Origin: Nitrospira sp.
Lineage (GTDB): Bacteria; Nitrospirota; Nitrospiria; Nitrospirales; Nitrospiraceae
Length of the DNA: 64,000 bases
Direction of reading: 5' to 3'
Assembly (NCBI GenBank): GCA_030444405.1
Contig: JARFPM010000004.1
Coordinates: 12,540-76,539, forward strand
Part shown: positions 11,012 to 63,867 of the stretch, piece after piece
Layout: every line of letters starts with the position of its first letter
How positions within the stretch are numbered: the first letter of the stretch is position 1
Notes under the pieces: model-generated
The model's database searches: none
The model's input: only the letters and a program-made list of their open reading frames with translations
What the model was told of the DNA's origin: nothing
Program-made: the position numbers and the translations under genes

Positions 11012-13168
11012 TTATCGGTGCTCATACCGATAGAGTCCGTACTCCGGCGTCACTTCCGACTTCACATTGGTCAGGACCACGCCAAGAACATTCGCCTGGG
11101 CATGGTCGAGTAGGAATTTGGCTCGCTTCAGGGCGTTCCGCCCGATCCGACCGACCTGATACACCAAGATGGTCCCATCGACACGCGAACTGAAGGCCAC
11201 CGCGTCCGTAACCGGAAGAATTGGTGGCGTATCGATCAGTACAATGTCGTAATCTTCTTGCATTTCCGATGTCAGCGTCTTGATCTTATTGATATTCAGG
11301 AATTCGTTCGGATTGCCCGCTTCTGACCCGCTCGTGAGGATATGAAGGTTGTCCAGTCCAGGTGTATTCATGACTCGATCGACACCAACGGTTCCAAGCA
11401 TGAGGTCCGTGGCCGAGCGGATGTAGGATCGCCATGACGTAGTCCCGAGCAAAGCATCAACCAATCCCGGTTTGCGATCCAAGCCCAACCGTTGATGTAC
11501 GATCGGTTTGCGGAGATCAGCATCCACCAACAACACCTTCATCCCTTCTTGAGCCATGGTGATCGCCAAATTGATGACGCAGGTACTCTTGCCCTCCCCT
11601 AGACCCGCACTGGTGAAAATAATCGATTTGACCCTGCGATCCATGCTGGCGAATTGAATGTTTGTTCGAAGCGAGCGAAGGCTTTCCGACAATACGGATT
11701 TTGGGTCGAGAAGGCAGATCAACTTCGATAAATCCTCCGCCACAGAGGATGGAGTATCTGGAGGCAAAGCCTCTTGGGCCATATCTTTGAGGGCTTTGTG
11801 ATCGAACTGGGGAATGATTCCCAGGACTGGAACTTTGAGGAACTCCTCGACTCCTTCAATGGTTCCTATGGACGTATCAAACGATTCACGACCGAACGCG
11901 AGCACAATGCCCAGAAAGCATCCCATCAGCGATCCGATCATCAGGTTCAATGTGATGTTCGAGGCATTGATCGGCTGCGTCGGGGTCATGGCTGGAGCGA
12001 TAATCGCCACTTCTTCAATACGCTCCGCTCCTTTGATCAACAATTCCTGGTGTTTGGCCTTCAAGGTCGCGAGAAGATCCGTATTTACTTTGACCTCGCG
12101 TTCCAAACGACTCATGTGAATCGCCGCCCGTGGATACCCAAGATAGCGCTGTCGATAGTGACTTCGCTGTTCTTGGAGCGCCCTCTCCCGATCGATGAGG
12201 GTAGCGACCTTTGACTTCAACTCTCGGACCATTTCGGATTTGACGTTGTCGATCTTCTTCTGTTGCTCGGTGACTTGGGGATGATCAGGCGTGTAATTGA
12301 TAAGCAATGTATCTCGTTCTTGGATCAGGTCCAGCAGCCGCTGATTTAGGATTGTGAGCAGAGCATTTTGCTCTTCGGTGAAGATCCGCCCCGTCTGATT
12401 GCCGATCACGGCATCTGATCGTTTCAAGACATCGATTTGTCGCTCGCCCTCGGCTCGCTTCCGCAATACTTCGTTATACTGTTCTTCAAGTTTAGTGAAG
12501 GTGTCCAACGCCGCTCTGGCTTCGTCCGAAAGGAACACTTGACCTTCATTTTCCTTAAATGCTCGCAGCGCTTCTTCTGAATCATTGAGACGCTTTTCCA
12601 AATTATCCACCTGTTCTTCTACGAACCGGCGGGATTCGGTAACGAGTCGATTGCGCGTGGCGATATTTTCTACTCGGTAGGCCGTCGCGGCGGAATTCGC
12701 CATTCGCTCCGCTTGATCCGGCTGATCCGAAGTGGCTGAGATACGGATAATGTTGGTATCACCCTCGCGTTGCGCCGTAATTTCTTGACCCAGATCGTAG
12801 ACAATATTCAAATAGGTGGCGGAACGCTTCTCCTCTTCCGATGCATTGTGAGTGACTCGTCCGAGATCCACCGCCACCCGCTCCATGACCGGGAAGCTCC
12901 GGATGAACTCGATCTGAGTACCAAGATCATTCACGTTGGAATAGGAGAGAGATTCCAACACTTGTTGGGCCATGGTCGTACTGCGCTCAAACTTCACTCT
13001 CGCGGCAGCTTCGTAAATCGGGCTCGGCTTGAGAAGCTCTGAAAAGAGGAATGTGAACAGGACCACCATGACGGTGGAAAGCAGGATCAAGTATTTGCGT
13101 TTCTTGAGGATCAGCCAGTAGTCGATGACGTTCAGTTCATATTGTGCCATGGGTCGCCTCGTCTCCAA
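11012..13168 (-). CDS. polysaccharide co-polymerase / tyrosine autokinase (Wzc/GumC-like)
   Basis: 718 aa. N-terminal Wzz-type TM and a long coiled coil. Second TM, then Walker A SAGLGEGKSTCVINLA, Walker A' VLLVDADLRKP, Walker B YDIVLIDTPPILPVTDA. Tyr-rich tail PEYGLYRYEH. Confidence 0.9.
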   Translation of the reverse strand: METRRPMAQYELNVIDYWLILKKRKYLILLSTVMVVLFTFLFSELLKPSPIYEAAARVKFERSTTMAQQVLESLSYSNVNDLGTQIEFIRSFPVMERVAVDLGRVTHNASEEEKRSATYLNIVYDLGQEITAQREGDTNIIRISATSDQPDQAERMANSAATAYRVENIATRNRLVTESRRFVEEQVDNLEKRLNDSEEALRAFKENEGQVFLSDEARAALDTFTKLEEQYNEVLRKRAEGERQIDVLKRSDAVIGNQTGRIFTEEQNALLTILNQRLLDLIQERDTLLINYTPDHPQVTEQQKKIDNVKSEMVRELKSKVATLIDRERALQEQRSHYRQRYLGYPRAAIHMSRLEREVKVNTDLLATLKAKHQELLIKGAERIEEVAIIAPAMTPTQPINASNITLNLMIGSLMGCFLGIVLAFGRESFDTSIGTIEGVEEFLKVPVLGIIPQFDHKALKDMAQEALPPDTPSSVAEDLSKLICLLDPKSVLSESLRSLRTNIQFASMDRRVKSIIFTSAGLGEGKSTCVINLAITMAQEGMKVLLVDADLRKPIVHQRLGLDRKPGLVDALLGTTSWRSYIRSATDLMLGTVGVDRVMNTPGLDNLHILTSGSEAGNPNEFLNINKIKTLTSEMQEDYDIVLIDTPPILPVTDAVAFSSRVDGTILVYQVGRIGRNALKRAKFLLDHAQANVLGVVLTNVKSEVTPEYGLYRYEHR

Positions 13169-13176
13169 GCATCGAT

Positions 13177-13971
13177 CTATGGCTTAAACGTCATCAACGC
13201 CGGGATCAGGTATGCCGGATAAATCGGCATGATGGCGACTTGAATAATCGGCATGATCTTCTGCGCCGCCTCTGTTGCATCGCCCAGATGCTCGCGGGGG
13301 ACAAAAATCACGTCATTTTCCTCCAGCGGGATGTTTCGTGAAAGATCCCCGTACGTGAAAAGACGGGCCAAATCGGCCGTCAAAATGGTCGGCTTGGTGA
13401 AATTTCCTCCTCGCACCACACGAATTTCTTCCAAGAGCGCAGTCCCATGATAGTTGTCCACGGCGGCCAACGCCTGCAGAACCGTCATGTTTCGAGCCAT
13501 GGGAACCATTCCTGGTTTCTTGACGTCTCCGAACACGAAGACACGCTTGACTTTGAGCAGCTTTTTTTTCAGGGCGATCTGAGCACGAGGCTCTCGCATG
13601 AATGGCTTGGCCGCCTCTTGCACACGCCGTTCGGCCTCAGCCACCGTGATTCCTCCGACGTCGACCTCCATGAATCCCACGGACACGGACCCGTTCTCGC
13701 GCACCAAACTGCTGTACTTTTCTTCCCCCGCCCCTCTACGAATGACTACTTCCAACGTATCCCCGGTCTCAATGGGGGTCTCCGCAGTCGGGACCGTCTC
13801 ATCCGCGTAGACATCCCCTTTCGGTAAGAGAGGGAGCGAGTGCGGAGCGGAACTCACGGCAGACGGAGGCAAAGTCGATTGTCCAGGATTTCGACAACCG
13901 GCTAGAAGCAGGAAACCGATTTCGGCCAACAATAGACCGACCGCTACTGGTTCTTTCGGAAGCCGTCGCAT
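13177..13971 (-). CDS. polysaccharide export outer-membrane lipoprotein (Wza-like, Poly_export + SLBB)
   Basis: ORF 13177..14061. Start set at MRRLPKEPVAVGLLLAEIGFLLLAGC (lipobox LAGC) because the upstream gene stops at 13982. GDTLEVVIRRGAGEE and an SLBB-like C-terminal half. Confidence 0.8.
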   Translation of the reverse strand: MRRLPKEPVAVGLLLAEIGFLLLAGCRNPGQSTLPPSAVSSAPHSLPLLPKGDVYADETVPTAETPIETGDTLEVVIRRGAGEEKYSSLVRENGSVSVGFMEVDVGGITVAEAERRVQEAAKPFMREPRAQIALKKKLLKVKRVFVFGDVKKPGMVPMARNMTVLQALAAVDNYHGTALLEEIRVVRGGNFTKPTILTADLARLFTYGDLSRNIPLEENDVIFVPREHLGDATEAAQKIMPIIQVAIMPIYPAYLIPALMTFKP

Positions 13972-13981
13972 ACAGTATCTC

Positions 13982-14935
13982 CTACGTGACCATCCTGGGT
14001 TGCAGGACCTCCACGATATGCGCGGACATGACTTGCGACAGATCCACTTCGCTTGTTTCACCGTGCTTCGAGATCGCCACCAGAGGCCGGAGCGGATAGC
14101 GCGAATTGACCCTTGTCACCGTTCCAATCTCTCCTGTATTGAGACGTACGTTACTTCCGATCGGATAGAGAGTGATCTGATCCCCCAACGCTTTCAAAAC
14201 ACGCAGAGAAAACGTCGCCTTGGCATGGAGAAGCAGTTCACGGACTCCCCGGTGAGGTGTTAAACGCTTGCGATAGGGTCTCATCGTTATCATCGCGTCC
14301 AATGTATCGACCATTCCAATGACCTGTGCCGCCTCGGCAATTTGCTGGCTTTGTAGACGACATGGGTATCCGCTGCCATCACACCGTTCATGTTCCTGTG
14401 CACTAATGGTAGAGACCCATTCAAAGACCCCAGTCTGAGCGGCGAGGATCCGACGGCCTCGTTCAGGATGAGTACGGAGAATATCTCGCTCTTCCTCCGA
14501 TAATGCTTCTCTTTTCTCGACGATCGCTACAGGTAGGGTCCACATACCGATGTCGTGCAACAGGCCTGCCAACGCCAGCCGCTCCACATCCTGCTGTGAG
14601 TAATTCAACCCCATCCCGACTTTAGCTCCCAAGATTGCGACATGGAGAGCATTATCGACGACATAGTCCTCGGTTTGGCCATCCAAGGCCCACCTGACGA
14701 GTTCGTCGCCGTGATTGAGAAGGTGCACCAACTGTCTGGCGAGATCGGTACATCCTGTGAGCTGCGGGCTCTTGCTTGAACCAACCGCCTCTCTGATCTT
14801 CCATAGCTCCTGTCTTGTCGAGGCACACCAAAAGCGGTTAGTGTTCAGAGATGAGGATCCCTCTGTCGGGGACAGAACCCTCCCGCTCTGCGAATCAGGC
14901 GTCCGCTCTCGGATCAAGTCAGAAAGCCGTGCCAC
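13982..14935 (-). CDS. HD-GYP domain protein (putative c-di-GMP phosphodiesterase)
   Basis: LAGLLHDIGMW (HD), HPERGRRIL, HERCDGSGYPCRL (GYP). Confidence 0.85.
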   Translation of the reverse strand: MARLSDLIRERTPDSQSGRVLSPTEGSSSLNTNRFWCASTRQELWKIREAVGSSKSPQLTGCTDLARQLVHLLNHGDELVRWALDGQTEDYVVDNALHVAILGAKVGMGLNYSQQDVERLALAGLLHDIGMWTLPVAIVEKREALSEEERDILRTHPERGRRILAAQTGVFEWVSTISAQEHERCDGSGYPCRLQSQQIAEAAQVIGMVDTLDAMITMRPYRKRLTPHRGVRELLLHAKATFSLRVLKALGDQITLYPIGSNVRLNTGEIGTVTRVNSRYPLRPLVAISKHGETSEVDLSQVMSAHIVEVLQPRMVT

Positions 14936-14974
14936 CCTTGTTGTTACTCCTGTGAATCTTGATACATCATGACC

Positions 14975-15151
14975 TTACTTATTCACGACCTTTCTCACGA
15001 CAGGGTCCGGCCGCGGGTTGAGCTTATTCAGTTCCCGCTCCAAGGTGGCGCGGATGAAACCGCTGGTCGTGTATCCCTGTTGCTTGAGGGCGTCGAGCTG
15101 CTCCTTCAACTCGACAGGAAGTTGAACAACAATGCGAACAAGCTTGGACAT
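14975..15151 (-). CDS. ribbon-helix-helix (CopG/Arc-like) DNA-binding protein
   Basis: ORF 14975..15199. Start set at MSKLVRIVVQLPVELKEQLDALKQQGYTTSGFIRATLEREL because AGGGAG lies 6 nt upstream of that ATG. Beta-strand then two helices. Confidence 0.6.
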   Translation of the reverse strand: MSKLVRIVVQLPVELKEQLDALKQQGYTTSGFIRATLERELNKLNPRPDPVVRKVVNK

Positions 15152-15193
15152 GGCGACTCCCTTTGGGCAAAGTACTACCCTGGCATCGAACTT

Positions 15194-15211
15194 CTGCACA
15201 TGCTGTGCCTT
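15194..15211 (-). promoter_or_regulatory. possible sigma-54 type -24/-12 element
   Basis: The minus strand reads AAGGCACAGCATGTGCAG, i.e. GG-N10-GC with GGCAC and GTGCA, about 44 nt upstream of the RHH start codon. Confidence 0.25.
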
Positions 15212-15377
15212 GCTAGCATCTCGTTAACGGCATGAAAAATCTGACACTTCTGCTGTGCTCCTCCAGCATTCCTGCCAGAAATGGCCAAAAACTGTCATTC
15301 AGTACCGATCTTGTACAGAAGAGGTGCGGTTCCCGGAGGATGGGGCTACCTGAACCGAAAAGGAAGAATGTTTGTCA

Positions 15378-17897
15378 TTATGAGAATTGGAGCAAGAGCC
15401 GGTACCAATTCTGGTACTCGCAACGCCAACGACAATGTGGAAAGTCAACCGGTTGCACAATAAGATCTCGCATGCGGCTCACCGTGAACTCGGATGTTGA
15501 GAGTCGTCCTGTCACCCAGATCGCTCCATCCCGATCCGTACGAAAGACCGTAATGTGTTGGTCTTGATAAGTTTGCAGTACCGAATCAACCGGATGCCCA
15601 TAAGGGTTAGCCGCACCGACCGAGACGACTGCATACTGCGGGTGGAGTTGCCGAAGCCAGTCCGGATCCAGCGAGGTACGCGCTCCGTGATGAGGTACTT
15701 TGAGTACGGTCACCGGTTGGTACCCTGCCTCGTTCAATCCCCTCAATCCAGCGACTTCAATGTCAGCTGAAAAAAGGATGGAAGAGGTTCCACACTGCAG
15801 TCGCGAGACGATGGATAGATTGTTCAAGAATGTCCCGGAATGGGGCTGAGTCGTCTCACGGACTACTGATGTTTCCGGTGGATTAAGAATCCTGAATCGG
15901 CACTGACCGGACTGTAACAGGTCTTGGCCACGCACAGCGGTGTATTGATCGATATGCTGATCACGAAGGGCTGCTTTAAGATCTTCAACGAATTTCTCAG
16001 AGCGTTCTATCCCCACACCCCAGTATCGTCCGACTGACATATGCCGGAGTATCCAAATCAATCCACCGACGTGATCCAATTGCTGGTGTGTCCCGATAAC
16101 ATGGGCAATATGGTGGATTCTCCGGCTCCACAAAAACGGGGCGACCACATTTCTTCCCATGTCAAATCGTTCATATCGAGATCCACCATCGATAAGAACG
16201 GTCTGGCCATCCGGCAACTCGACAACGGCACTATCCCCTTGTCCGACATCAAGGAATGTGACACGCCAACGATCGCCGTCTGCTTGCGGCACGGGGGGAC
16301 TCAGCCACCACCCGATCAACAATATCGACAGACCGGCGCCAGCAACTCGGACACGCCACGGTATGAGTTGAAGGCTTGCTATGAATAAGCCGGTGTAAAA
16401 CAGGACAATCGCTGGTATTGATGGTGCTGCCACATGCCACTCCACTCCCGGGAGGCGGGCACACCATTGCAATCCAAGAACCATCAACCCGAACAGTTGC
16501 TCTATCGCTGAGCCAAGGATCAAAGACTCGGTGTCCGTAATAATCGTCCACAGGGCGGCAAGCAGTCCCAATGGGACCAAGATGATACCGGTGAAGGGGA
16601 CGGCTATCAGATTGGTGATAGTTCCCATCCACGGAACCTGATTGAAATAGAACGCAACCATGGGCAAAGTAGCCACAGTCATAGCCCCGCTCATCGACAG
16701 GGCGCTGAGCGTATGGCTCATGAAGCGGTATTTCAGCCGACTGTCGGCCCCTCCGGCGTCGGCGTTCCATGATTTCGTGAGTATGATCATTCTGACCATC
16801 ACGAGTACGGACAGAAAAGAGAGTTGAAAGGAGATGTCAAAGATGGCGCGAGGATCGTGCAACAGGATCGCCAGGAGGGCCACAGCCATTGCATGACTCA
16901 GATGGCGTTCATACCCTAGCCACATTGCGATCATCGCCAGAGTGATCATGACGAGCGAACGCATGGTCGCTAACTCAGCCCCCGCAAGCATCGCATAGAG
17001 TGCCACAGCGGGCCAGGCGAGCAGAATGGCAATCTTCGAAGGTGTGACTGTTCGTGATAGGGCCAACAAGAGAGTGAGGGGAAGCCCAAGAACGAGTCTT
17101 TTCACTGTCCAAAAAGCTACGATGGCCACAAGCCCGAGATGTGAACCGGAGATCGAAAGCAGGTGAACTGTTCCGGTCACCATAAACCAGTCTTGGAGCT
17201 CCTGTTCAAGATAGCCCCGTTCCCCGATGATCATGCCGAGAAATAACCCGCGTGTGGGTTGGCTCAATGTGCTGATGGCAGCTGCACGTATCGTGGTCCT
17301 CCAATGATCGATCCGGTTCCATACGCTCCACAACCCGATTTGAGGCTCTGTGTCTAACAGCGTCACCGCCTGAGCACCGGTCACGGTGGTCAGAAAGTCG
17401 ATGCCCTGACGCTCCATATAGGCAGCATAGTCGAATCCACCCGGGTTCAACGACCCTCGTGGACGGTGAAGTCTTCCTCGAAACGAAATACGGTCGCCGT
17501 GATGAAGCGTGATACCAGGTTCGCGCCACACAAGACGTATGCGTCTCGATTCCGAATCTGATTCGTCTGTTTGAACCACGATGGTCTGACGCCCCACGCT
17601 GTGCTGAACGGGAGCTATAACTCGGCCGATAACCGAGGCTTGAACGGTCTCATGAAGCGGCGGCGACATCCGGGAAAACTCCGATGTCGGCGTGGCGAGA
17701 GTCCAGTAAGCGACCCCGGAGGCAAGGCTAGAATACAGGAGCAGTGCGGAGGGTAAGTCGATATAACGGACTCGCTCGAGAATACTGAAACCAACGGCAA
17801 TGCCGGCCAACAGAGCTATGACGGAGAGCGGGAAAAAGGAGATCTGGGCCCCACACAGAAGGCCGAGGAAAAACACTGCTGTGAGGGATGGGAGCAT
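15378..17897 (-). CDS. comEC: DNA internalization competence protein ComEC/Rec2
   Basis: 839 aa. N-terminal DUF4131-like region, polytopic competence domain, C-terminal metallo-beta-lactamase FLDVGQGDSAVVELPDGQTVLIDGG ... HQQLDHVGG ... VPHHGA. Confidence 0.9.
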   Translation of the reverse strand: MLPSLTAVFFLGLLCGAQISFFPLSVIALLAGIAVGFSILERVRYIDLPSALLLYSSLASGVAYWTLATPTSEFSRMSPPLHETVQASVIGRVIAPVQHSVGRQTIVVQTDESDSESRRIRLVWREPGITLHHGDRISFRGRLHRPRGSLNPGGFDYAAYMERQGIDFLTTVTGAQAVTLLDTEPQIGLWSVWNRIDHWRTTIRAAAISTLSQPTRGLFLGMIIGERGYLEQELQDWFMVTGTVHLLSISGSHLGLVAIVAFWTVKRLVLGLPLTLLLALSRTVTPSKIAILLAWPAVALYAMLAGAELATMRSLVMITLAMIAMWLGYERHLSHAMAVALLAILLHDPRAIFDISFQLSFLSVLVMVRMIILTKSWNADAGGADSRLKYRFMSHTLSALSMSGAMTVATLPMVAFYFNQVPWMGTITNLIAVPFTGIILVPLGLLAALWTIITDTESLILGSAIEQLFGLMVLGLQWCARLPGVEWHVAAPSIPAIVLFYTGLFIASLQLIPWRVRVAGAGLSILLIGWWLSPPVPQADGDRWRVTFLDVGQGDSAVVELPDGQTVLIDGGSRYERFDMGRNVVAPFLWSRRIHHIAHVIGTHQQLDHVGGLIWILRHMSVGRYWGVGIERSEKFVEDLKAALRDQHIDQYTAVRGQDLLQSGQCRFRILNPPETSVVRETTQPHSGTFLNNLSIVSRLQCGTSSILFSADIEVAGLRGLNEAGYQPVTVLKVPHHGARTSLDPDWLRQLHPQYAVVSVGAANPYGHPVDSVLQTYQDQHITVFRTDRDGAIWVTGRLSTSEFTVSRMRDLIVQPVDFPHCRWRCEYQNWYRLLLQFS

Positions 17898-48603: not shown

Positions 48604-49149
48604 TTACGTATCTGCCGGATCTGCATCAAGCTCCATATTCCAATAAAGATAATCACGCCAGCTTTCCGGCGTGTTACGAATGCCGATGGTAATGGTAATG
48701 ACGGGGCTCCAGCGAGGCTTCACGGGTCGTTTCTTTAACTTCATCCCGGCTTCGTCCGGCGTACGCCCGCTCTTGCGGTTGTTGCATCGCCAGCAGGCAG
48801 TCACAATGTTTTCCCATGTCTTTTTTCCACCCTTGGCGATGGGCACGACATGATCAAACGTCAGCTCCTCGGTCCGAAACCTGTAGTTACAGTATTGGCA
48901 GCAGTATCCGTCTCGGGTGAAAATGTTGATGCGGGAAAACTTGACGGCACGATGACTATCTTTCAGTCTAACCAGTTTCAGCAACCGCATAACAGCAGGA
49001 AGTTTGATCGACAGCGAAATCCCATGGATTTCCCTGTCGTAGACCTCCAAGACTTCGACTTTTCCTTGCCAGAGAAGGGCGATCGCTTTTTGCCAATGTA
49101 CGACCCGCAGGGGTTCATAGGTCGCGTTGAGCAGGAGGGTCATTTCCAT
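48604..49149 (-). CDS. HNH endonuclease
   Basis: CQYCNYRFRTEELTFDHVVPIAKGGKKTWENIVTACWRCNNRKSGRTP (HNH with CxxC...CxxC zinc site). Confidence 0.85.
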   Translation of the reverse strand: MEMTLLLNATYEPLRVVHWQKAIALLWQGKVEVLEVYDREIHGISLSIKLPAVMRLLKLVRLKDSHRAVKFSRINIFTRDGYCCQYCNYRFRTEELTFDHVVPIAKGGKKTWENIVTACWRCNNRKSGRTPDEAGMKLKKRPVKPRWSPVITITIGIRNTPESWRDYLYWNMELDADPADT

Positions 49150-51878: not shown

Positions 51879-52724
51879 ATGGTAATTAGGGCGTTTCGTA
51901 ACCATGTGGTAGGCTGGCGGCCGCATGGGAACAGGGCCCAATCGGATTTTGGGTGTGCAGCCAACTTCTTGTGGGGACGCAAACGCGTCTTTTGTGGTTC
52001 GTTTCGCGTCAATCGGACTCGGCGCGGCTATGTCAAATGCCGCACCTGTCACAGACAGAAGAGCCTCGCGAAACTCCGGCGCGAGATTGCGATCCTGGAG
52101 GGGGTTCTATCAGCAGGTCCCAGCCTATTGGTTGGCGGATGACCTGGGGGTCGATCCCAAGGTCATCAGTCGGGTCTACCAGAAATTGCGGGCGGCGTTG
52201 TTCCACGTCGCCGAATTGGAAGGCATGGCCAGTAAACTCTCGGGCGAGATCGAGCTGGACGAAGCCTATTTCGGCGGGCGACGCAAGGGCCACGTCGGTC
52301 GGGGAGCCGCTGGCAAAAGCGTCGTCTTCGGGCTACTGGAGCAGGATGGGCGCATGTATACAGAAGGTGGGGGAGCATGTGTCGGCGGAAACCCTCATGG
52401 CCCACATTTAGACCACCACCCGCAAAGGCTCCGTCTACTACACGATGCCTTCCGGGGCTATCAATCGTTGCGGCGCTATGGTAAACATCACACCGTCAAT
52501 CACAAAGAGCCTGGTCGATGCCAGGACCAAGAACCATATCAACGGAATCGACGGCTTCTCGTCGTTTGCCAAGCATATTTTGCACAATTACCGAGTCGTG
52601 TCCAAGTATCACTTCCCGAAGTATCTGGAAGTATCTGAAGGAAATTGAGTACCGGTTCAACCACCGCAAGGAAAACCTCTTCAAGCTCTTCTTGCGGTGT
52701 TTCTTCGGTTACGTTTCGCCCTAA
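51879..52724 (+). pseudogene. IS1595/ISXO2-like transposase, multiply frameshifted
   Basis: Homologous segments are scattered over three frames. They are the zinc ribbon YVKCRTCHRQKSL (ORF 51879), IELDEAYFGGRRKGHVGRGAAGKSVVFGLLEQDG and DAFRGYQSLRRYGKHHTVNH (ORF 51925), HVSAETLMAHI (ORF 51953), HINGIDGFSSFAKH (ORF 52445) and EIEYRFNHRKENLFKLFL (ORF 52518). At least four frame changes are needed to join them. Confidence 0.8.
51881..51903. repeat. IS left terminal inverted repeat
   Basis: GGTAATTAGGGCGTTTCGTAACC. The reverse complement of the right end is GGTAATTAGGGCGAAACGTAACC. Confidence 0.85.
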
Positions 52725-52729
52725 TTACC
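52707..52729. repeat. IS right terminal inverted repeat
   Basis: GGTTACGTTTCGCCCTAATTACC. Confidence 0.85.
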
Positions 52730-52736
52730 CGAAAAA

Positions 52737-55022
52737 ATGATCATTATGCCATCTGATTCAGACAAGCCCCATGGTCTGACACGTCGGGAACTGGTCCGAC
52801 TACTGGGCACATCGGCCGGTCTGGCCTGTCTCGCCCCCCTGGCCGGCTGTGGCAGCTTCTGGGAACGCCAAGCGGCCATCCCCGTCGATAGCTGGCACAA
52901 GGGTGTCTGCCGATTCTGCGGAACCGGTTGCGGCGTCATGATTGGCCTCAAAGACAACAAGGTGGCGGACGTCAAGGGAGACGACGACGCCCACAACCGC
53001 GGCCGCCTCTGTATCAAGGGCCTGGCCACCCGCGACATTCTTTATTCAGAGGGCCGCGCCCTCCACCCGATGATCCGGAAGAACGGCGAGCTCCAGCGTG
53101 CGAGCTGGGATGAAGCCATGACGCTGGTCACCCAGCGGTTCAAAGAGGCCATCCAGACCCACGGGCCGGACAGCGTCGCCTTCTACGGCAGCGGGCAGCT
53201 CTACACGCAGGAAAGCTACACCGCAAACAAACTCTTCAAGGCCGGCATTGGCACGAACAATGTGGACGGCAACCCGCGGCTGTGCATGGCCTCGGCGGTC
53301 ACCGGCTACACCACAACCTTCGGCAAGGACGAGCCAGCCGGCTGCTACGAGGACATTGACCACGCCGAGTGTTTCTTCATCACGGGCTCGAATACCCTGG
53401 AGTGCCATCCGATCATATGGGAGCGAGTGCGGGACCGCAAGCGGAGCCATCCCACCACGAAAATCATCCTCGTCGATCCACGCAAGACCCCCACAGCACG
53501 ACACGTGGACCTGCACCTGCCGATCCTACCCGGCACGGACGTCTCGCTGTACAACGCGATGATCCACGTCTTTCTGGAAGAGAATTTCATCGACGCGGAC
53601 ATGGTCGAGCACTACCTGTCGTTCCAGGAGGGCGAGCAAAAACGGACCTTCGACGACTTCAAACGACACATCGCGAAATATCAGCCGGAAACGGCGGCTA
53701 AAACCTGCGGCGTGACCGCGCGAGACATCCGCAAGGCGGCCTTCCTGTTCGCCTCGTCGAAAGCTACCCTGTCGCTGTGGACGATGGGCCTGAACCAGCA
53801 GGTGCAGGGGACTGCCTCCAACCGCTTGGTCAGTGCCATGCATCTCCTGACGGGGCACTTCGGCCGACCCGGCGCCACGCCGTTTTCGTTGACGGGCCAG
53901 CCGAACGCCTGCGGCGGCGTGCGCGACACCGGCTCGCTCGCGCATGCGCTGCCGAACGGGCGCCTCGTCGCCAACCCGAAACACCGCGAGGAAATGGAGG
54001 ACCTGTGGAAAGTCCCCCGCGGACGAATTAGCCCCAAACCGGGCTACCACACCGTCGCCCTGTTCGACGCGATGAACCGCGGAGCCGTGAAGTGCTGCCT
54101 CGTAATGTGTACGAACCCCGGTCAGACGCTCCCAAACGTCACAGCCTACCGGGAGGGTATGGAGAAAACCTTCTTGGTCGTGGTGGATGCCTTTCATCCG
54201 ACGGAAACGACAAAATTCGCCGACGTGGTGCTGCCTGCTGCACTATGGGTGGAGAAGGAAGGAGTGACAGGCAACACAGAACGGCGATACCACCTCTACC
54301 CGAAGCTCGTCGATCCGCCAGGCGAGGCCAAGAGCGACCTGGAGATTCTCGTCGATCTGGCGACCCGTCTTGGCCACGGTGATCTGATCGTGACCCGCAC
54401 GCCACGGGACGTCTGGGACGAATGGCGTAAGGTGTCGGCTCACTCGAAATACAACTTCGAGGGCATCACCTACGAACGGCTGCAGAAGGAACGCGGCATC
54501 CTCTGGCCCTGCCCCACGGAGACGCATCCGGGCACCAAGCGGCGGTACGTCCCAGGACAGGACCCCATGGCCTCAGGCACTGGCCGGTTCGACTTCTACG
54601 GCAAACCGGACGGCCGGGCCGTGGTCTGGCTCGATCACCAGGAGGAACCACTGGATCTGTACACAAACGAATACCCGCTGATCTTCAACACGGGCCGGAT
54701 CCTGGAGCACTGGCACACAATGACCATTACCGGCCAAGCGCCGACGCTCAAGGACATCCATCCCGACTACCTAGAGATCCATCCCTACGACGCCAACCGG
54801 TTCAAGATCACGGACGGTGATCCGGTGATCGTGAAGAGCCGCCGCGGGGAAGTCGAGTTGCGCGCCCGCCTGTCCGATATCGTGCAGCCCGGCATGGTGT
54901 TCGCGACGATGCACTCGGCCAGGCACCTGATCAATCAAGCCACCCACGATGCGCACGACCCCTTTTCAAAACAACCGGCGTTCAAGCGGTGCGCGGTATC
55001 GGTCCGGACGAAAACGGCCTAG
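52737..55022 (+). CDS. napA: Tat-exported bis-MGD molybdoenzyme, periplasmic nitrate reductase NapA-like (monomeric ~760-aa class)
   Basis: Twin-arginine signal LTRRELVRLLG followed by LAPLAGCGS. [4Fe-4S] motif CRFCGTGCG...RGRLCIKG. Mo-ligand region NPRLCMASAVTGY. GSNTLECHPIIWERV. Confidence 0.75.
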   Translation: MIIMPSDSDKPHGLTRRELVRLLGTSAGLACLAPLAGCGSFWERQAAIPVDSWHKGVCRFCGTGCGVMIGLKDNKVADVKGDDDAHNRGRLCIKGLATRDILYSEGRALHPMIRKNGELQRASWDEAMTLVTQRFKEAIQTHGPDSVAFYGSGQLYTQESYTANKLFKAGIGTNNVDGNPRLCMASAVTGYTTTFGKDEPAGCYEDIDHAECFFITGSNTLECHPIIWERVRDRKRSHPTTKIILVDPRKTPTARHVDLHLPILPGTDVSLYNAMIHVFLEENFIDADMVEHYLSFQEGEQKRTFDDFKRHIAKYQPETAAKTCGVTARDIRKAAFLFASSKATLSLWTMGLNQQVQGTASNRLVSAMHLLTGHFGRPGATPFSLTGQPNACGGVRDTGSLAHALPNGRLVANPKHREEMEDLWKVPRGRISPKPGYHTVALFDAMNRGAVKCCLVMCTNPGQTLPNVTAYREGMEKTFLVVVDAFHPTETTKFADVVLPAALWVEKEGVTGNTERRYHLYPKLVDPPGEAKSDLEILVDLATRLGHGDLIVTRTPRDVWDEWRKVSAHSKYNFEGITYERLQKERGILWPCPTETHPGTKRRYVPGQDPMASGTGRFDFYGKPDGRAVVWLDHQEEPLDLYTNEYPLIFNTGRILEHWHTMTITGQAPTLKDIHPDYLEIHPYDANRFKITDGDPVIVKSRRGEVELRARLSDIVQPGMVFATMHSARHLINQATHDAHDPFSKQPAFKRCAVSVRTKTA

Positions 55023-55035
55023 CGAAGGACGGACG

Positions 55036-55782
55036 ATGGCACGGACGCACCAGCAATCCCTCATCGCATTCCTGACCGTGGCCAGCCTGTGGGCCGTACC
55101 GGCCTGGGCGGCCGGCGCGCACGACGTTGTATCAAGCGAGGACATCATCCGCAGCATCGGCATCGCCGCCTCGGTGGCCGGCATCCTGCTGCTCATCCTT
55201 GTGCAGTACGTGTACCGGGAGCGCCTCCCACATGGCACCTACCACCGGCTGCTCCTGGTCGGCGTGTTCCTCCTGCCCCTCGCCGCAACCTGGAGCACGA
55301 CGGCAACGGTGATGGAAGGCACCAAGTCGGTGCAGGCCTGTAGATCCTGCCACGTCATGCATCCGTTCGTGAATGACATGACCAGCGCGAGCAGCCCCAC
55401 GCTGGCCGCCCGGCACTACCGAAACAACTGGATCGCGAAAGACCAGTGCTACGCCTGTCACGTCACCTATGGCGCGACCGGAACTCTGGCGGGCAAACGG
55501 GACGGCTTCCGGCACTGGTTGCATTATGTGACCAACACCTACCCTGACCCCATCCAGTACGTGGGAAGCTACGCCAACTCCAATTGCCTGTCGTGTCACC
55601 AGGGGACCGAGAAATGGGAGCGCGTGAAAAGCCACCAGACACTCGTGGGGGAACTGTGGGCAGATCGCATCGCGTGCATCACGTGCCATGGACCGCCGCA
55701 TCCCCTCCCTCGCGAGCGAACCGTCGCGGTGGCGAGCCGGGATGCGTCGCGCGGAACGGCGGGAGGACTTCATGGACAGTGA
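55036..55782 (+). CDS. napC: tetraheme cytochrome c, NapC/NirT/NrfH family, with N-terminal extension
   Basis: Four CxxCH motifs: CRSCH, CYACH, CLSCH, CITCH. TM segment then TATVMEGTKSVQACRSCHVM as in NapC. ATG 55036 preceded by GAAGGACGG. ORF 54949..55782. Confidence 0.72.
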   Translation: MARTHQQSLIAFLTVASLWAVPAWAAGAHDVVSSEDIIRSIGIAASVAGILLLILVQYVYRERLPHGTYHRLLLVGVFLLPLAATWSTTATVMEGTKSVQACRSCHVMHPFVNDMTSASSPTLAARHYRNNWIAKDQCYACHVTYGATGTLAGKRDGFRHWLHYVTNTYPDPIQYVGSYANSNCLSCHQGTEKWERVKSHQTLVGELWADRIACITCHGPPHPLPRERTVAVASRDASRGTAGGLHGQ

Positions 55783-58947: not shown

Positions 58948-59052
58948 AGTCACTCCCAAACTCGTCTGGATAACATCTGAGAACCTGTTCGTACCGTGAG
59001 CAAGCATCCGCCATCATTTGACAGGTCTCGCCCTCTTTGGCAGACTCCGCCC

Positions 59053-59310
59053 ATGGATCGCATCACCGAGCAGGACGTCGCCCATGCGCTGGACATTCTG
59101 GGCCTCACACTCCCCATCACCACTGAAGATCTGGAACGGGCGAAGCGGGTCCAGCTCTACAACTGGAATCCCGCACGCTATGCCGGCCTCAGCAACAATC
59201 CAAAGCAATACATGCAACAGTATCGGAAAGCCGAGGAGATGACTCGGACGGTTGAGGCCGCCTATGCGCTGATTTCAGCGGTCTTTGTTCCCGACGACTC
59301 CGGACCGTAA
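59053..59310 (+). CDS. hypothetical protein (weak J-domain-like helix pattern)
   Basis: ORF 58996..59310. ILGLTLPITTEDLERAKRVQLYNWNPARY is vaguely DnaJ-like but lacks HPD. Coding status uncertain. Confidence 0.35.
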   Translation: MDRITEQDVAHALDILGLTLPITTEDLERAKRVQLYNWNPARYAGLSNNPKQYMQQYRKAEEMTRTVEAAYALISAVFVPDDSGP

Positions 59311-59324
59311 TCGTCAAACGCCAC

Positions 59325-59338
59325 TTGTCATTCGTCAA
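59325..59338. repeat. 14-bp motif TTGTCATTCGTCAA, copy 1
   Basis: Exact copy of 61282..61295. Lies ~55 nt past the stop of the first radical SAM gene (minus-strand sense). Confidence 0.6.
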
Positions 59339-59389: not shown

Positions 59390-61270
59390 TCACCCGGCAT
59401 CGTGACTGGTGACACGTGCCATTCCCTCGTCGCCTTGTGTATGGGCCACCGGCCAGGTAATTAAGCCTGACACCCCCTCGGGAGATCCGACCGGCTGCGT
59501 CTGCTGGGCGTAGATTTGTGGCAACCGGTTCGTCCCAAACTTCGAGATATAGAGGAAGACATGCTCACGCGAGTTCACACGTACGGCCCAAGGGTGAAAA
59601 TCATGCTTGTAGAATTCTTCGCAGAGCTGCATCGCGTCGAGACATGACAGGGTACTGGGGTCATTCAAGGTGTAGTAGTAGTCCAACGGCAGATCGTACT
59701 CGTCCTGCTTGTGAATCGTAATGCCGAATTTTTCAGGGTGGCGAACTATCGGCGTATGGCGATAAGCCACAAAGTAGAACAATTCCAGCGAGTGAATCAC
59801 CGGCTGGTTCTCAAGGACGAACTGCCGGGTTTCCATCGCTTCCTCAATCGTTTCGCCAGGAAACCCGTAGAACGCCATCACATGGTTCCAAATCCCGGCT
59901 TTCGCCGCCATCTGGAGATTGCGCTCGATCACGCTCTTCTTGGCGTGTTTGTCCATGAGATTCAAGACCCGTTCATTGGCCGATTCCATCCCGTAATAGA
60001 GTGTGCAGCAGCCGGCCTTGGCCGCAAGATTCCACGTGGCCTGATCTTGCAGCGTCTCTTCAAAACGAATGAGTGTTGTCCACTTAATGTCCACGTTCTG
60101 ATCGACGAGCATCTGCGAGACCTTCTTGAACAGCGCCGGCGGGTAAGATTCATCGCTGAACAAAAAGTGTCGGCAGTGGTACTTGTCTCGAAGGGCCTTA
60201 ATCTGGTCGACCACGAACTGGGCCGGCATCCCTCGATACTGATCGAAGTAGCCCTGACCATGGTCGCAAAAGGTGCAGCGGCCCCAATAGCAGCCACGTG
60301 TCGCTAGGTAGGGAATGATCAGTTCCGGGACGAAGTAGCGATCCAGCGGCATCCCATCAAAATCCGGCAAGGGAAGCGAGGTTGTTTTCTCGGTATAGAT
60401 TTCAGCATTCCGATGCAGGCCAGACTCATCCCGATAAATCAGGTTGGGTACGGAAGTGAGTGGTCGTTGCCCGTTCAGAGCTTCGATGAGCCACAACAGT
60501 GCATGCTCTCCCTCATAGAGAATCGCTGAATCAAATACTTCCGTGAAGAACCTCTTGTGATTGATAAGGTCTTCTTGCAGTCGAGTAATGATGTTGCCGC
60601 CCACTACCACGTAGATCTGCGGGAAGGCCTCCTTGATCAACTTTGCGAAGGTCAGGCCCGCCAAGAGCTGCATCTGCGTCCCAATAGAAATCCCGATCAC
60701 ATCCGGTCTCTCCTTGGCCACTTCGGGCATGACCAACTGATTGCAGAGATCCCGATAGACGTTCACCTGTTCATCTTCCAAGCAAGCAAACACTTCCTTC
60801 GAGACTCCGGGGCGGTAGCCTAAATTGCTTTCCATCGGATAGAAGACAAGCGACGCAGGATAGTAGGCAGCGGAGATATAGGCCATCGTCTCACGGAACG
60901 TGTTGAGCGCCCCGTCCAATATCTCGGCGTCATAGAACCGTTCGCCACGAACGATCCGCTTAGCATCTTCCGCTCGATCCGCGAGATAGAACACATCGAC
61001 GGCATCGGCTTGCTCCACCACCGCCTTCTGATCTACATCCCGTTCTGTAAGAAGCCCGGCCTTCTCTTTGTCCTGTAGCGCCTTGAGCTGCATCCCCAGC
61101 CGGCCCTTCACCCAAATCAGGAACTCCATGCTAAAGAAATGGTCCCACATCCCGATGTTGATGTCGCGCTGAATGACCGTATGCCCCGCTTCCCGCAGCA
61201 CTGCGGTCAGCGAAGGCAGAGCGAGATACGGAGCCGTCGGGACCCACTCAGGCGGTCTGTACAAGACCAC
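59390..61270 (-). CDS. B12-binding-domain-type radical SAM protein, unusual CX4CX2C motif (paralog 1)
   Basis: 626 aa with a GTG start and an in-frame TGA just upstream. N-terminal LPSLTAVLREAGHTVIQRDIN, PDVIGISI, VVVGGNIITR. Cluster motif YLATRGCYWGRCTFCDHG. YGMESANERVL, YGFPGETIEEA. Confidence 0.85.
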   Translation of the reverse strand: MVLYRPPEWVPTAPYLALPSLTAVLREAGHTVIQRDINIGMWDHFFSMEFLIWVKGRLGMQLKALQDKEKAGLLTERDVDQKAVVEQADAVDVFYLADRAEDAKRIVRGERFYDAEILDGALNTFRETMAYISAAYYPASLVFYPMESNLGYRPGVSKEVFACLEDEQVNVYRDLCNQLVMPEVAKERPDVIGISIGTQMQLLAGLTFAKLIKEAFPQIYVVVGGNIITRLQEDLINHKRFFTEVFDSAILYEGEHALLWLIEALNGQRPLTSVPNLIYRDESGLHRNAEIYTEKTTSLPLPDFDGMPLDRYFVPELIIPYLATRGCYWGRCTFCDHGQGYFDQYRGMPAQFVVDQIKALRDKYHCRHFLFSDESYPPALFKKVSQMLVDQNVDIKWTTLIRFEETLQDQATWNLAAKAGCCTLYYGMESANERVLNLMDKHAKKSVIERNLQMAAKAGIWNHVMAFYGFPGETIEEAMETRQFVLENQPVIHSLELFYFVAYRHTPIVRHPEKFGITIHKQDEYDLPLDYYYTLNDPSTLSCLDAMQLCEEFYKHDFHPWAVRVNSREHVFLYISKFGTNRLPQIYAQQTQPVGSPEGVSGLITWPVAHTQGDEGMARVTSHDAG

Positions 61271-61281
61271 TCGCGCTCATT

Positions 61282-61295
61282 TTGTCATTCGTCAA
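61282..61295. repeat. 14-bp motif TTGTCATTCGTCAA, copy 2
   Basis: Exact copy of 59325..59338, in the 93-bp spacer between the two radical SAM genes. Confidence 0.6.
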
Positions 61296-61320
61296 ATGTC
61301 AATCATCCTTCGTGAACCGC

Positions 61321-61363
61321 CTCAGCACTCCGGACTCACCATTGCCAAGTCTCAGCACTCAGG
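61321..61363. repeat. direct repeat of CTCAGCACTC (61321-30, 61351-60), related to the 56184-56235 hairpin
   Basis: cagcactcagg (61352-62) is the reverse complement of cctgagtgctg (56183-93). Confidence 0.5.
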
Positions 61364-63262
61364 TCACATCTTCCCGGCTAATGTGTGCGTAACCCCTGGC
61401 ATCTTCACAGCTTGATACTGTAGATCCGGCAACTTTCCTAAACCAAACTTTGAGATATAGAGAAAGATGTATTCGCGGATATACAGCCTCAGATCCCAGC
61501 CCGGATGATGGTTCCGTTCAAATTCTTCGAACACCCGCTCGGCCTCCTCGATGTTCATCCCGTTCTTCACCGTATAGTAGTAGTCGAGCGCCAAGTCCCA
61601 CTCCGGATTCTTGTAGGCCGTCACACCCCACTTCTCCGGGTGTTTCGCTACCGGGTTGTGCCGCCCCAGATCGAACGTCCCGAACCCGAGTGAATGAACA
61701 TGGTCCTTGTTCTGCTCGAGGAACTGCACCGACTGCCAGGCCTCTTCCTTCGTCTCACCAGGAAAGCCGAAGAAGCCCATGCAGTGGTTCCAGATCCCCG
61801 CTTCCGCCGTGAGCTTGAGATGTTTCGCCATCACCTCAGTCGTCGTCGCCTTGTCCATCAGCTGCAGCACCCGCTCAACTCCCGACTCGTAGCCGAAGTG
61901 CAGATAGCGGCAGCCGGACTTCTTCGCGTCTTGCCAGACTTGTTCATCGAGCAGGCTCTTCTCAAACCGCATGTGCGTCGTCCAGAAGATACCCATCCGG
62001 CTCTCGATCAACCCGCGCGCGAGCTTGCGGAATAAGGCCGGCGGATAAGACTCGTCAGTGAAATGAAAATGCTTGGCACCGTACTTGTCGCGCAGATAGG
62101 CGATGTCGGCGAGAATGTCCTGGATCTTCTTCGATCGATAGCCCGCCGTATAGCCCTCGCCATGGTCGCAGAACTCGCAGCGGCCCCAGTAGCAACCGCG
62201 CGTCGCCAGATAGGGCAAGATCCTCGTCGGCACAAAATACTTCTCCAGCGGCAAACCGTCAAAGTCCGGTGGCGGCAGTGTCGCCAGATCCTCCGCGTAG
62301 CTGGTGGGTGATGTATGGATTCCGGTTTCGTCCTTATAAATGGCGTTGGGTACCTCAGCAAGACTTCGCTTTGCGCCCACTGCCGACACCAGCTGTACAA
62401 AAGCCGTCTCCCCTTCATAAACCACGGCACTGTCGAAGTACTGGAACAATGGCGACTGCGGCAGTACATCGCGTAGGCGCGTCACCGTGTTCCCGCCGAT
62501 CGCGATATGGATGTGGGGAAAGTGCTGCTTGATGAGGGCACAGAAGGTCATGGTCGAGAACATCTGCTGTTGTAGAACGATCGAGATGCCGATCACGTCC
62601 GGCTGTTCTGCTTTAATCGCCGGCTTTATAAGATGATCGAACACATCGCGATAGATATTCACCTGCGTATCGTTCACCGCATCCATGATCTCGGAGGAGA
62701 CATAGACCTTGTACGACAGGTCCGTCTCCATCGGCGGCATGCAGATTCTCGCCGGGAAATAGACCATGGAGACGACCGACATAACATCGCGAAAGACTTG
62801 AATAGACCATTCTAACTTGTTTATATTATAGCACTGTTCACTTCTAATAATGCGCTTCGCTTCCTCAGCGTTTTGAATTAACTTCGCCATCCGTTGATGG
62901 GTCACGTCGCAGAGCGCCAGCTGCAAATCCATCTCGGCTTCACTCAGCTCCCGCTTCTTCGAGAGCTTCCGGAGCCGATCCAACTGCTGCGGCACCCGGC
63001 GCAGAACCTTCTTCAAAAAGTCCTCGCTGAAGTACCAGTCCCACATCTCACAGTTGATGTCTTCTTGAATGACCGTATGACCGGCTTGTCGAAGAACAGC
63101 GGTAAGAGAGGGCAGCGAAAGATAGGGTTCGGAGGGAAACCAATCAGGCGGGAAGATCAGCATCACCTTCATCTTCCGGCCGCTGAAGGCTTCAAGCTGT
63201 TGGCGATTCAATAGGATGAGTTCTTTGGAGGCTCGCTCACCCTTCGAATACTGTATTTTCAT
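61364..63262 (-). CDS. B12-binding-domain-type radical SAM protein, unusual CX4CX2C motif (paralog 2)
   Basis: 632 aa. LPSLTAVLRQAGHTVIQEDIN, PDVIGISI, IAIGGNTVTR, YLATRGCYWGRCEFCDHG, FGYESGVERVL, FGFPGETKEEA. Start uncertain: ATG 63262 has AAGGAAGGG ~11 nt upstream. The alternative is MKVMLIFPP at 63172. Confidence 0.85.
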   Translation of the reverse strand: MKIQYSKGERASKELILLNRQQLEAFSGRKMKVMLIFPPDWFPSEPYLSLPSLTAVLRQAGHTVIQEDINCEMWDWYFSEDFLKKVLRRVPQQLDRLRKLSKKRELSEAEMDLQLALCDVTHQRMAKLIQNAEEAKRIIRSEQCYNINKLEWSIQVFRDVMSVVSMVYFPARICMPPMETDLSYKVYVSSEIMDAVNDTQVNIYRDVFDHLIKPAIKAEQPDVIGISIVLQQQMFSTMTFCALIKQHFPHIHIAIGGNTVTRLRDVLPQSPLFQYFDSAVVYEGETAFVQLVSAVGAKRSLAEVPNAIYKDETGIHTSPTSYAEDLATLPPPDFDGLPLEKYFVPTRILPYLATRGCYWGRCEFCDHGEGYTAGYRSKKIQDILADIAYLRDKYGAKHFHFTDESYPPALFRKLARGLIESRMGIFWTTHMRFEKSLLDEQVWQDAKKSGCRYLHFGYESGVERVLQLMDKATTTEVMAKHLKLTAEAGIWNHCMGFFGFPGETKEEAWQSVQFLEQNKDHVHSLGFGTFDLGRHNPVAKHPEKWGVTAYKNPEWDLALDYYYTVKNGMNIEEAERVFEEFERNHHPGWDLRLYIREYIFLYISKFGLGKLPDLQYQAVKMPGVTHTLAGKM

Positions 63263-63284
63263 CGAGAGCTAGCCCTTCCTTATC

Positions 63285-63408
63285 CAGGATGCTCAAAACG
63301 GCGTCTCGCTAGGCCGCAGGCAAGCCAACACCGGAGGCGTACCCTCTGGGGTACGTTGAGGATGGTGGCGAGCCGAGAACGACGCGAGAGGTTGTTTTCA
63401 GCATCCTG
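63285..63408. repeat. long imperfect inverted repeat / hairpin in the radical SAM leader
   Basis: Outer arms 63285-63309 and 63384-63408 pair over ~25 positions with 2 mismatches and 2 G-U pairs. An inner perfect hairpin cgtaccc-tctg-gggtacg lies at 63338-63355. Confidence 0.55.
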
Positions 63409-63867
63409 CTGGAGGCCCGTTCGCCCTTGGAGAACTCAATCTTCACGTCGGCCTGATCCTTCCCAGAAACTGGCCCAAAGTGACAGCAAAGCCAATGGGT
63501 TAGGCTTAGAAGAAGTATTGTACGGGGGTGAAAGAAGGAGATGCAAGGGTGGGACTAGGCTGGACTCGCTCAAGGCCAGAGCCCTGCTGCCCGCTCGACC
63601 AGCCGGCTTAGCCCTCATTGTCAGAGGGAAAAGCGGAAGGTGGATGGAACCGCGGGCCCAATAGCAACTGGACGGGGGGATGTCGTATTTTTTCTTTGAG
63701 TAATCCCCGTTCGGTGTGTCTGGTGGAAGCACGGAGTGTTATACGGACCATAGCAAGCACCACTTTGGGTAAAATGTCTACTAGCATTACCGCCTCGACC
63801 CAGCTCCCATGACCAGTTGAGTTGGTCCTAAGCATCGAGTTCATCAATTGTTGCGACGGAGGAACTT

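Follow-up and report, generated by a model that had tools for sequence, protein, structure and literature searches.

What do two adjacent genes of Nitrospira encode whose products resemble radical S-adenosylmethionine (SAM) enzymes that depend on cobalamin, and on what would those products act? The genes lie in a 64,000-nt stretch of Nitrospira sp. (assembly GCA_030444405.1, contig JARFPM010000004.1, positions 12,540 to 76,539), which is called the window here. Gene A, the upstream paralogue (61364..63262, minus strand), starts with ATG and encodes a 632-residue radical SAM protein with a B12-binding domain. Its paralogue, gene B (59390..61270, minus strand), encodes 626 residues from a GTG, with an in-frame TGA two codons upstream that bounds the open reading frame (ORF). 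Our overall reading, to which we assign a probability of roughly 0.35, is that A and B are a cobalamin-type radical SAM pair, probably C-methyltransferases, that act on a protein or cofactor of the periplasmic nitrite oxidoreductase (NXR) system. The parts of this reading differ in strength. Judged from sequence, A and B are very likely intact class B radical SAM enzymes; that they are methyltransferases we favour by a small measure; a protein or peptide substrate falls slightly short of an even chance; and a link to NXR or to the molybdenum cofactor (Moco) is rather doubtful.

An earlier note on this DNA, made from the sequence alone, had described two co-directional genes of 626 and 632 codons, 93 bp apart, whose products are end-to-end paralogues identical at about half of their positions. 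This description is borne out. The ORFs are found as claimed, with an intergenic gap of 93 bp; BLASTP aligns A with B end to end over 602 aa with 46% identity, 66% positives and 4 gap positions, and all of the sequence blocks that had been quoted as shared are present in both proteins. The cluster-binding motif reads C357-YWGR-C362-EF-C365 in A (CYWGRCEFC, residues 357-365; 62168..62194, minus strand) and C327-YWGR-C332-TF-C335 in B (CYWGRCTFC, residues 327-335; 60266..60292, minus strand), a CX4CX2C spacing in both. These are indeed the sole clustered Cys residues of either copy, the remaining ones being scattered, with only C451 of A and C421 of B common to both paralogues. In an alignment of 40 family members, all 20 invariant residues, including the three motif Cys, are kept in A and in B; I226 and S227 of the GISI block and D403-E404 (A numbering) are nearly invariant. 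Exact-sequence look-ups of B and of A, the latter from two candidate start sites, matched no record, and the data on the context of the pair are drawn from 90%-identical homologues.

The domain composition is that of a class B enzyme. PF02310 (B12-binding) scores 43.7 bits in A and 38.2 bits in B against a Pfam gathering score of 32.1, and PF04055 (Radical_SAM) scores 56.5 and 55.6 bits, respectively, against 29.5. No other Pfam model exceeds its gathering score in either protein, and the SPASM/twitch domain that had been reported as lacking is indeed not detected by Pfam. An AlphaFold2 model of A, built on the 40-sequence alignment, has a mean pLDDT of 92 and a pTM of 0.90. In the model, Rossmann strands b1 (32-37) and b2 (63-68) are separated from b3 (223-227) and b4 (252-256) by a mostly helical insertion of ∼135 aa (residues 69-203; 62654..63058, minus strand), which is also present in the family consensus; strands b3-b5 then lead into the radical SAM barrel. 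This partial TIM-barrel core occupies residues ∼345-560 (61583..62230, minus strand), with the PF04055 match spanning 353-515, and it contains D403-E404, GIWNH at 489 and GFPGET at 499. Model and Pfam therefore agree with the proposal of a B12-like Rossmann domain that is split by a helical insert of ∼130 aa and followed by a radical SAM core. The three-Cys motif, the PF04055 score and the partial TIM-barrel fold place the proteins in the radical SAM superfamily, and the Rossmann-type B12-binding domain N-terminal to the core places them in class B. A Foldseek search of the PDB with the model of A, a check that had been suggested, matched many radical SAM structures at a probability of 1.00; the cobalamin enzymes TsrM, OxsB, MgmA (QCMT) and CysS are among the best matches, as is AprD4.

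The four-residue interval between the first two Cys of the motif had been taken as a novel departure from class B, a view that does not survive comparison with relatives. A HMMER search of 1.84 billion cluster representatives retrieved 2,169 relatives at E <= 1e-30, and 142 of the 150 nearest 50%-cluster representatives have C-x4-C-x2-C, nearly always as RGCYWxxCxFC. According to a review, the cluster motif of OxsB is CX4CX2C instead of CX3CX2C, and its "GGE" motif is Ala-Asp-Glu, the Glu of which contacts cobalamin (PMC9204698); both A (D403-E404) and B have an Asp-Glu aligned with this motif. GenD1 has been described with a Cx4Cx2C motif, in the same sentence that likens it to GenK and Sis14 (PMC4340712), and a CX4CX2C megacluster is catalogued at RadicalSAM.org (PMC9477430). 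Within this large, uncharacterised family the spacing is thus standard, and it is an already described variant. The note had held that the case would fall if the spacing were a described variant with a known substrate, and what we find is the described motif and no known substrate to go with it. A and B are thus an uncharacterised subfamily of a well-known enzyme class, with a motif that is already documented.

The claim that the pair fits no characterised class B family holds, as all NCBIfam scores are far below their cut-offs. The top curated model for A is TIGR03975 (rSAM_ocin_1), a C-methyltransferase of ribosomally synthesized and post-translationally modified peptides (RiPPs), with 124.7 bits in A and 105.4 bits in B against a cut-off of 281.85, and the match spans only model positions ∼120-465. 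For B, the top model is the P-methyltransferase PhpK (TIGR04479; A 122.5, B 145.7 bits; cut-off 600). Lower scores are seen with ApyD (88 and 96 bits for A and B, respectively; cut-off 750), BchE (69.4 and 80.4 bits; cut-off 481.35) and QCMT (TIGR04014; 52.7 and 40.8 bits; cut-off 360). The lipid-type models compared were HpnJ (71.9 and 59.7 bits; cut-off 577.6), the ladderane-associated lipid B12 radical SAM model TIGR04072 (67.7 and 65.2 bits; cut-off 360) and HpnR (47.6 and 56.6 bits; cut-off 650). The ranking seen with A and B is repeated in 40 of 40 diverse family members. The automatic JGI name "anaerobic Mg-protoporphyrin IX monomethyl ester cyclase", which many homologues carry, is a generic one.

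Phylogeny ties the pair to nitrite oxidisers. Among family members, A is nearest to B (46% identity), with all others at <=39%. In a neighbour-joining tree of 206 members, with bootstrapping on an 88-sequence subset (553 trimmed columns), A and B are sisters; the bootstrap value is 100 for the clade of A, for that of B and for the two combined. The B clade includes Nitrospinota sequences at 51-53% identity, to which a database search assigned the names Nitrospina gracilis 3/211, N. watsonii, Ca. Nitromaritima and Ca. Nitrohelix, and the A clade includes 57-58% identical orthologues from a low-GC organism (loci L095 and L096). A second clade with 100% support joins Ca. Scalindua and Ca. Brocadia, which are anammox bacteria, with two Nitrospinota groups and two sequences from metagenome-assembled genomes (MAGs) labelled Thermodesulfobacteriota and Nitrospirae. 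The A-B pair itself seems confined to nitrite-oxidising bacteria.

It is the surroundings of the relatives that bring in NXR. A survey of the gene neighbourhoods of orthologues, of the kind that had been proposed, recorded contexts in Scalindua, Nitrospina, Brocadia and archaea. In Ca. Scalindua (a 4.1-Mb MAG; L172, 1625-15362), a family member stands inside a co-directional nxr run, where the order is nxrC-like (EB_dh), nxrB-like, a 200-aa gene, a NarJ-type chaperone gene, a 333-aa gene, nxrA (1148 aa) and the radical SAM gene, followed by genes for a NapG/NapF-like ferredoxin and an Mrp/NUBPL ATPase, moaA and moaC. The NxrA encoded there scores 1268 bits against Kuenenia NxrA (PDB 7B04), and the succession of nxrA, radical SAM gene and ferredoxin gene is repeated in three metagenome loci (L158, L108 and L112). 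We found no publication on a B12-type radical SAM gene beside nxrA of Scalindua. In Nitrospina gracilis, the B orthologue has a divergent neighbour that encodes a 490-aa protein, in which this ferredoxin domain recurs. At distances of 5.6-8.6 kb from the orthologue are a NarJ-like chaperone gene, an NxrC-like gene and a gene homologous to the 333-aa one of Scalindua. A further Nitrospinota locus (L118) has moaA directly upstream of its family member and the same ferredoxin downstream; also downstream, at 11170-12372, is a 55%-identical homologue of a 412-aa radical SAM gene of Nitrospira that is described below. Moco genes thus stand near family members in three phyla, with moaA and moaC in Scalindua, moaA in L118 and moaB in 53 Nitrospira loci, where it lies 5-8 kb downstream of A, and because of these genes a role directed at Moco is kept open. 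As a separate observation, a protein of ∼620 aa without a clear domain, and with only a faint methyltransferase-like match, is encoded beside family members in three Nitrospinota loci and, in one Nitrospira locus, ∼2 kb upstream of A (L173 of N. gracilis, at 11927-13786, L113, L118 and L053).

The wider family leans to peptide or protein substrates, as evidenced by recognition domains, fusion, tandem pairs and archaeal members near mcrA. Its representatives fall into two length groups, ∼530-620 aa and ∼650-780 aa, and the C-terminus of the long forms is a PqqD-like RiPP recognition element (RRE), for which PF05402 is above the gathering score in one member (P0131). With a hidden Markov model (HMM) built from these tails, an RRE-like tail is found in 70 of 137 full-length representatives. 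One relative (P0123) is a fusion of two family copies, located behind a SPASM maturase and a 69-aa ORF; two family genes occur in 14 of the 72 metagenome loci having a called family member, and SPASM maturases neighbour family members in some loci. In archaeal mcrBDGA operons, RRE-bearing members of 715-735 aa (L090, L091 and L092) are found three genes after mcrA, adjoined by a conserved 105-aa ORF on the opposite strand. These may be further enzymes that modify methyl-coenzyme M reductase, or they may belong to an adjacent RiPP system. Distant matches at 27-29% identity include three proteins of 2,096-2,331 aa (P0135, P0143 and P0189) with four or five tandem B12-type radical SAM modules that have the canonical CX3CX2C.

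Within Nitrospira, the pair is a fixture. The closest homologues of A are all from this genus (88-93% identity), and A is present in 80 Nitrospira/Nitrospiraceae genomes, one per species, at 83-92% identity, including N. moscoviensis, Ca. N. defluvii, N. lenta and Ca. N. kreftii. Orthologues of B in the genus are 79-93% identical, and A-B synteny is kept across it, N. moscoviensis, N. defluvii and N. kreftii included. In most loci that are long enough, the order is A, B, a convergent ORF of ∼100 aa, a PhzF-like gene and a gene for a Zn-dependent dehydrogenase; the genes upstream of A are not conserved. The fixed synteny together with the variable upstream genes argues for a core operon and against a mobile biosynthetic cluster. 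The upstream genes of N. kreftii (a CMAS-like methyltransferase and two small ORFs) were considered as partners and rejected, since they are not beside the pair in N. moscoviensis. The convergent ORF of the window (104 aa; 58996..59310, plus strand), syntenic with B, is found by tblastn at 41-91% identity in most loci long enough; it has no Pfam or NCBIfam match and is regarded as context only. By eye, its centre appears loosely J-domain-like, without the HPD motif. In 20 Nitrospira loci, those of N. moscoviensis and N. defluvii included, a 412-aa radical SAM gene (CPVKCEFC; weak PF04055 match only) stands between the small ORF and the PhzF-like gene (for example L046, ∼14294-15529, and L074, L100, L102, L103 and L130). 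This gene is absent from the window, and its product gave no informative family match.

The pair had also been described as lacking context genes, with no precursor peptide or transporter nearby. Since the window includes only 738 bp upstream of A, this could not be judged from the window alone. For Nitrospira the statement holds, as neither a precursor peptide nor a transporter gene was found in the loci examined; it does not extend to the relatives in Scalindua, Nitrospina and archaea, which have informative neighbours.

How might such enzymes work? By the chemistry of class B, a reduced [4Fe-4S] cluster would cleave SAM to a 5'-deoxyadenosyl radical, which would abstract a hydrogen from an unactivated carbon; most often, a methyl group would then be supplied by methyl-cobalamin bound in the Rossmann domain. 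The associated NapF/G-like ferredoxin is a plausible dedicated reductant. The two paralogues, which stem from an old duplication, could handle two sites or two steps in the modification of one substrate, or could form a heterodimer, either of which is consistent with the recurrence of tandem pairs and the existence of the fusion protein. If the relatives are a guide, the substrate would be a protein, a peptide or a protein-bound cofactor rather than a lipid, and the likeliest target would be the periplasmic-type NXR system or its Moco. We infer the NXR link from a shared trait, in that a periplasmic-type NXR is common to Nitrospira, Nitrospinota and anammox bacteria. The functional analogy is to Mmp10 and QCMT/MgmA, B12 radical SAM methylases that are encoded beside, and post-translationally methylate, the catalytic subunit of the lineage-defining energy enzyme methyl-coenzyme M reductase. 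MgmA is a top-four structural match to A, and members of the A/B family occur near mcrA in archaea and directly after nxrA in Scalindua. A and B nevertheless belong to another family (TIGR04014, 41-53 bits against 360), and the Nitrospira pair is not beside nxr genes. In its narrower form, in which A, B and the anammox/Nitrospinota clade are dedicated maturation enzymes of a periplasmic or anammoxosomal NXR that carry out a radical, probably C-methyl, modification of NxrA, another subunit or Moco, the proposal is unlikely on our own estimate.

Several observations weigh against a role of the pair in the NXR system. Neither the window nor the 10 kb on either side of A-B in 82 Nitrospira loci contains nxr genes. 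The clade with Scalindua does not stand as sister to A/B and is only ∼34% identical, so transfer of function across the family is weak; the immediate sister sequences of the A/B clade are in unrelated contexts (an Opp transporter, a glycosyltransferase). The orthologue of Ca. Brocadia is not in an nxr cluster, and has argG before it and sensor-regulator genes and HPP/FocA-type transporters after it. Relatives from organisms that are not nitrite oxidisers (P0134, P0127, P0131 and P0191) have nondescript surroundings, namely Lon/Clp genes, a glycosyltransferase, a phage-like region and an Opp transporter. The tail HMM finds no RRE/PqqD tail in A or B. The structural match AprD4 has a fold similar to that of A and is not known to use B12, so that a B12-type fold alone is no proof of cobalamin binding. 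The taxonomic restriction of the pair rests on limited sampling (top-120 match lists and 80 metagenome loci). Finally, we know of no reported post-translational or cofactor modification of NXR, and a literature search that paired radical SAM with Nitrospira, Nitrospina or nxrA yielded nothing about the A and B genes. The NXR link is therefore a lead rather than a result.

The substrate could instead be a small-molecule metabolite or cofactor, such as molybdopterin or another intermediate, or the product of the PhzF-like isomerase and Zn-dehydrogenase, that undergoes two successive radical steps (methylations or a rearrangement like that of OxsB); this, too, we consider unlikely. OxsB (oxetanocin A; PDB 5UL2-5UL4), the closest solved relative by sequence (best PDB match, E 2.6e-7) and among the best by fold, acts on a nucleotide. 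It resembles A in its CX4CX2C motif (C-DYSR-C-TF-C against C-YWGR-C-EF-C, from a residue alignment to 5ul2_A), in the aligned Asp-Glu at the GGE position and in the succession of a Rossmann B12 domain and a radical SAM core. However, the similarity is marginal, at 28-32 bits and 13-16% identity in structural alignments, and OxsB has an N-terminal domain I of its own where A and B have the helical insert inside the Rossmann domain. In addition, OxsB contracts the ring of a deoxyadenosine phosphate, with no methylation, together with its partner OxsA, and the neighbourhood listings of A-B include no OxsA-like HD-domain partner gene. The motif and the Asp-Glu of an OxsB-type enzyme are therefore present in the pair, but a close sequence relationship and the partner are not. 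PhpK, which acts on a phosphinate and gives one of the two best HMM matches, and GenK and GenD1, which act on an aminoglycoside, are further class B enzymes with small-molecule substrates. They have the same overall architecture, in GenD1 with the Cx4Cx2C motif, and GenD1 and GenK are presumably about as large as A and B. Around A-B, however, there are no genes of a phosphinate or aminoglycoside cluster, and Nitrospira is a chemolithoautotroph, not an antibiotic producer. The lack of an RRE in A and B, the synteny of the pair with the PhzF-like and dehydrogenase genes in most Nitrospira loci long enough, the moa genes near family members and the 412-aa radical SAM gene, which adjoins the pair in 20 Nitrospira loci and has a homologue close to a Nitrospinota member, would all suit a small molecule. 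Against this, the convergent gene separates the PhzF-like and dehydrogenase genes from A-B, the association is seen within one genus only, transporter and pathway genes are absent, and half of the family has a peptide-binding RRE.

That same RRE, along with recurrent tandem or fused paralogues, SPASM maturases adjoining some family loci and the fact that TIGR03975 and ApyD, both RiPP enzymes, give the best HMM similarity at a similar length (∼600 aa), would also fit ordinary RiPP C-methyltransferases whose precursor peptide is encoded elsewhere in the genome. We regard this as improbable, because A and B have no RRE of their own, their scores are far below the TIGR03975 cut-off, and 83-92% identity with a fixed genus-wide synteny is atypical of secondary-metabolite clusters. 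Moreover, no NHLP/Nif11-type or other precursor gene is near A-B, no precursor, protease or exporter gene was found in the neighbourhoods examined (N. kreftii and N. moscoviensis), and no small ORF is conserved upstream of A. The substrate that had first been suggested was a lipid or other hydrophobic molecule, modified in two C-C or C-methyl steps; the lipids considered here are of hopanoid, ladderane-like or membrane-spanning type. Nitrospira has characteristic methyl-branched fatty acids, and there is weak similarity to HpnJ (72 bits), TIGR04072 (68 bits) and HpnR (48-57 bits). The lipid-type scores as a whole (47-72 bits) fall short of the cut-offs (360-650) by a factor of 5 to 13 and are lower than the scores with the peptide and phosphinate methylases; lipid genes were not found in the neighbourhoods examined, the CMAS-type methyltransferase of N. 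kreftii is not conserved beside the pair in N. moscoviensis, and the RRE in half of the family argues for peptide substrates. The lipid proposal is thus unsupported, and we hold it to be very improbable.

The action of the pair on the NXR system would matter for what is known of nitrite oxidation. NXR is the key enzyme of that process and of the nitrite/nitrate couple in anammox, and interest in A and B is raised by their occurrence, the pair being found so far only in nitrite oxidisers and a relative lying within the nxr operon of Scalindua. If the proposal is true, modification of NXR or its cofactor would add a new layer to the biochemistry of the enzyme, might help to explain why NXR is difficult to express in heterologous hosts, and would parallel, in the nitrogen cycle, what Mmp10 and QCMT do to methyl-coenzyme M reductase.

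The region upstream of A had been described as a 600-bp noncoding leader, but it is not one unit. Its sole strongly conserved block in an alignment of 20 Nitrospira genomes, including N. moscoviensis and N. defluvii, is a sigma-70-like sequence (63517..63546, minus strand) with a -35 element TTGCAT (63546-63541), an 18-nt spacer and a -10 element TACAAT (63522-63517), ∼255 bp upstream of the ATG of A. This block is the putative promoter of the A-B operon, although a consensus scan for promoters and terminators, in which counts were at or below shuffle expectation, missed it. Nearer to A is a lineage-specific insertion of ∼184 bp in the 5' leader (63263..63445, minus strand), a palindromic interspersed repeat that is found in this genome and its closest relatives; N. 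moscoviensis and N. defluvii do not have it upstream of A. A 36-nt degenerate copy of the first 12 codons of A (63410-63445; a direct repeat with 75% identity) bounds the insertion, which has 25-nt inverted repeat arms and would fold into a long hairpin (-79.7 kcal/mol, z -2.9). From its place immediately before the start codon, the hairpin could influence translation or the stability of the mRNA. The repeat belongs to a multi-copy intergenic family of Nitrospira with a unit of ∼125 bp, of which we count 58 copies in 30 loci (L074, L050, L049 and L082 among them). No Rfam family reaches its gathering score in the leader, and a relaxed threshold gave only a chance match of 15.7 bits, so neither a riboswitch, for which cobalamin or SAM would have been plausible ligands, nor another known RNA was detected. 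In the 20-genome alignment, ORFs of 87 to 98 aa upstream of A show no conservation, which leaves no conserved precursor-peptide ORF there.

A few minor features of the window remain. A 14-nt sequence, TTGACGAATGACAA, has exactly two copies in the 64 kb, with none expected by chance; both are on the minus strand and flank B, at 61282-61295 (12-25 nt upstream of its start) and at 59325-59338 (52-65 nt after its stop), and the sequence is absent from all 175 other loci fetched. Positions 51925-55782 contain a fragment of an IS1595-type transposase gene, a gene for a 761-aa NapA/formate-dehydrogenase-like molybdoenzyme and an overlapping gene for an NrfH/NapC-type multihaem cytochrome. This block looks inserted in the present genome, because in Ca. 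N. kreftii the dehydrogenase gene and moaB are split only by a small CBS-domain gene. Lastly, a 181-aa ORF (48604-49149, minus strand) has an HNH region with a weak match to RNA-guided nuclease models of IscB/Cas9d type, whose cut-off is far above the 46 bits scored. The product is probably a plain HNH endonuclease, as annotated at the syntenic site of N. kreftii.

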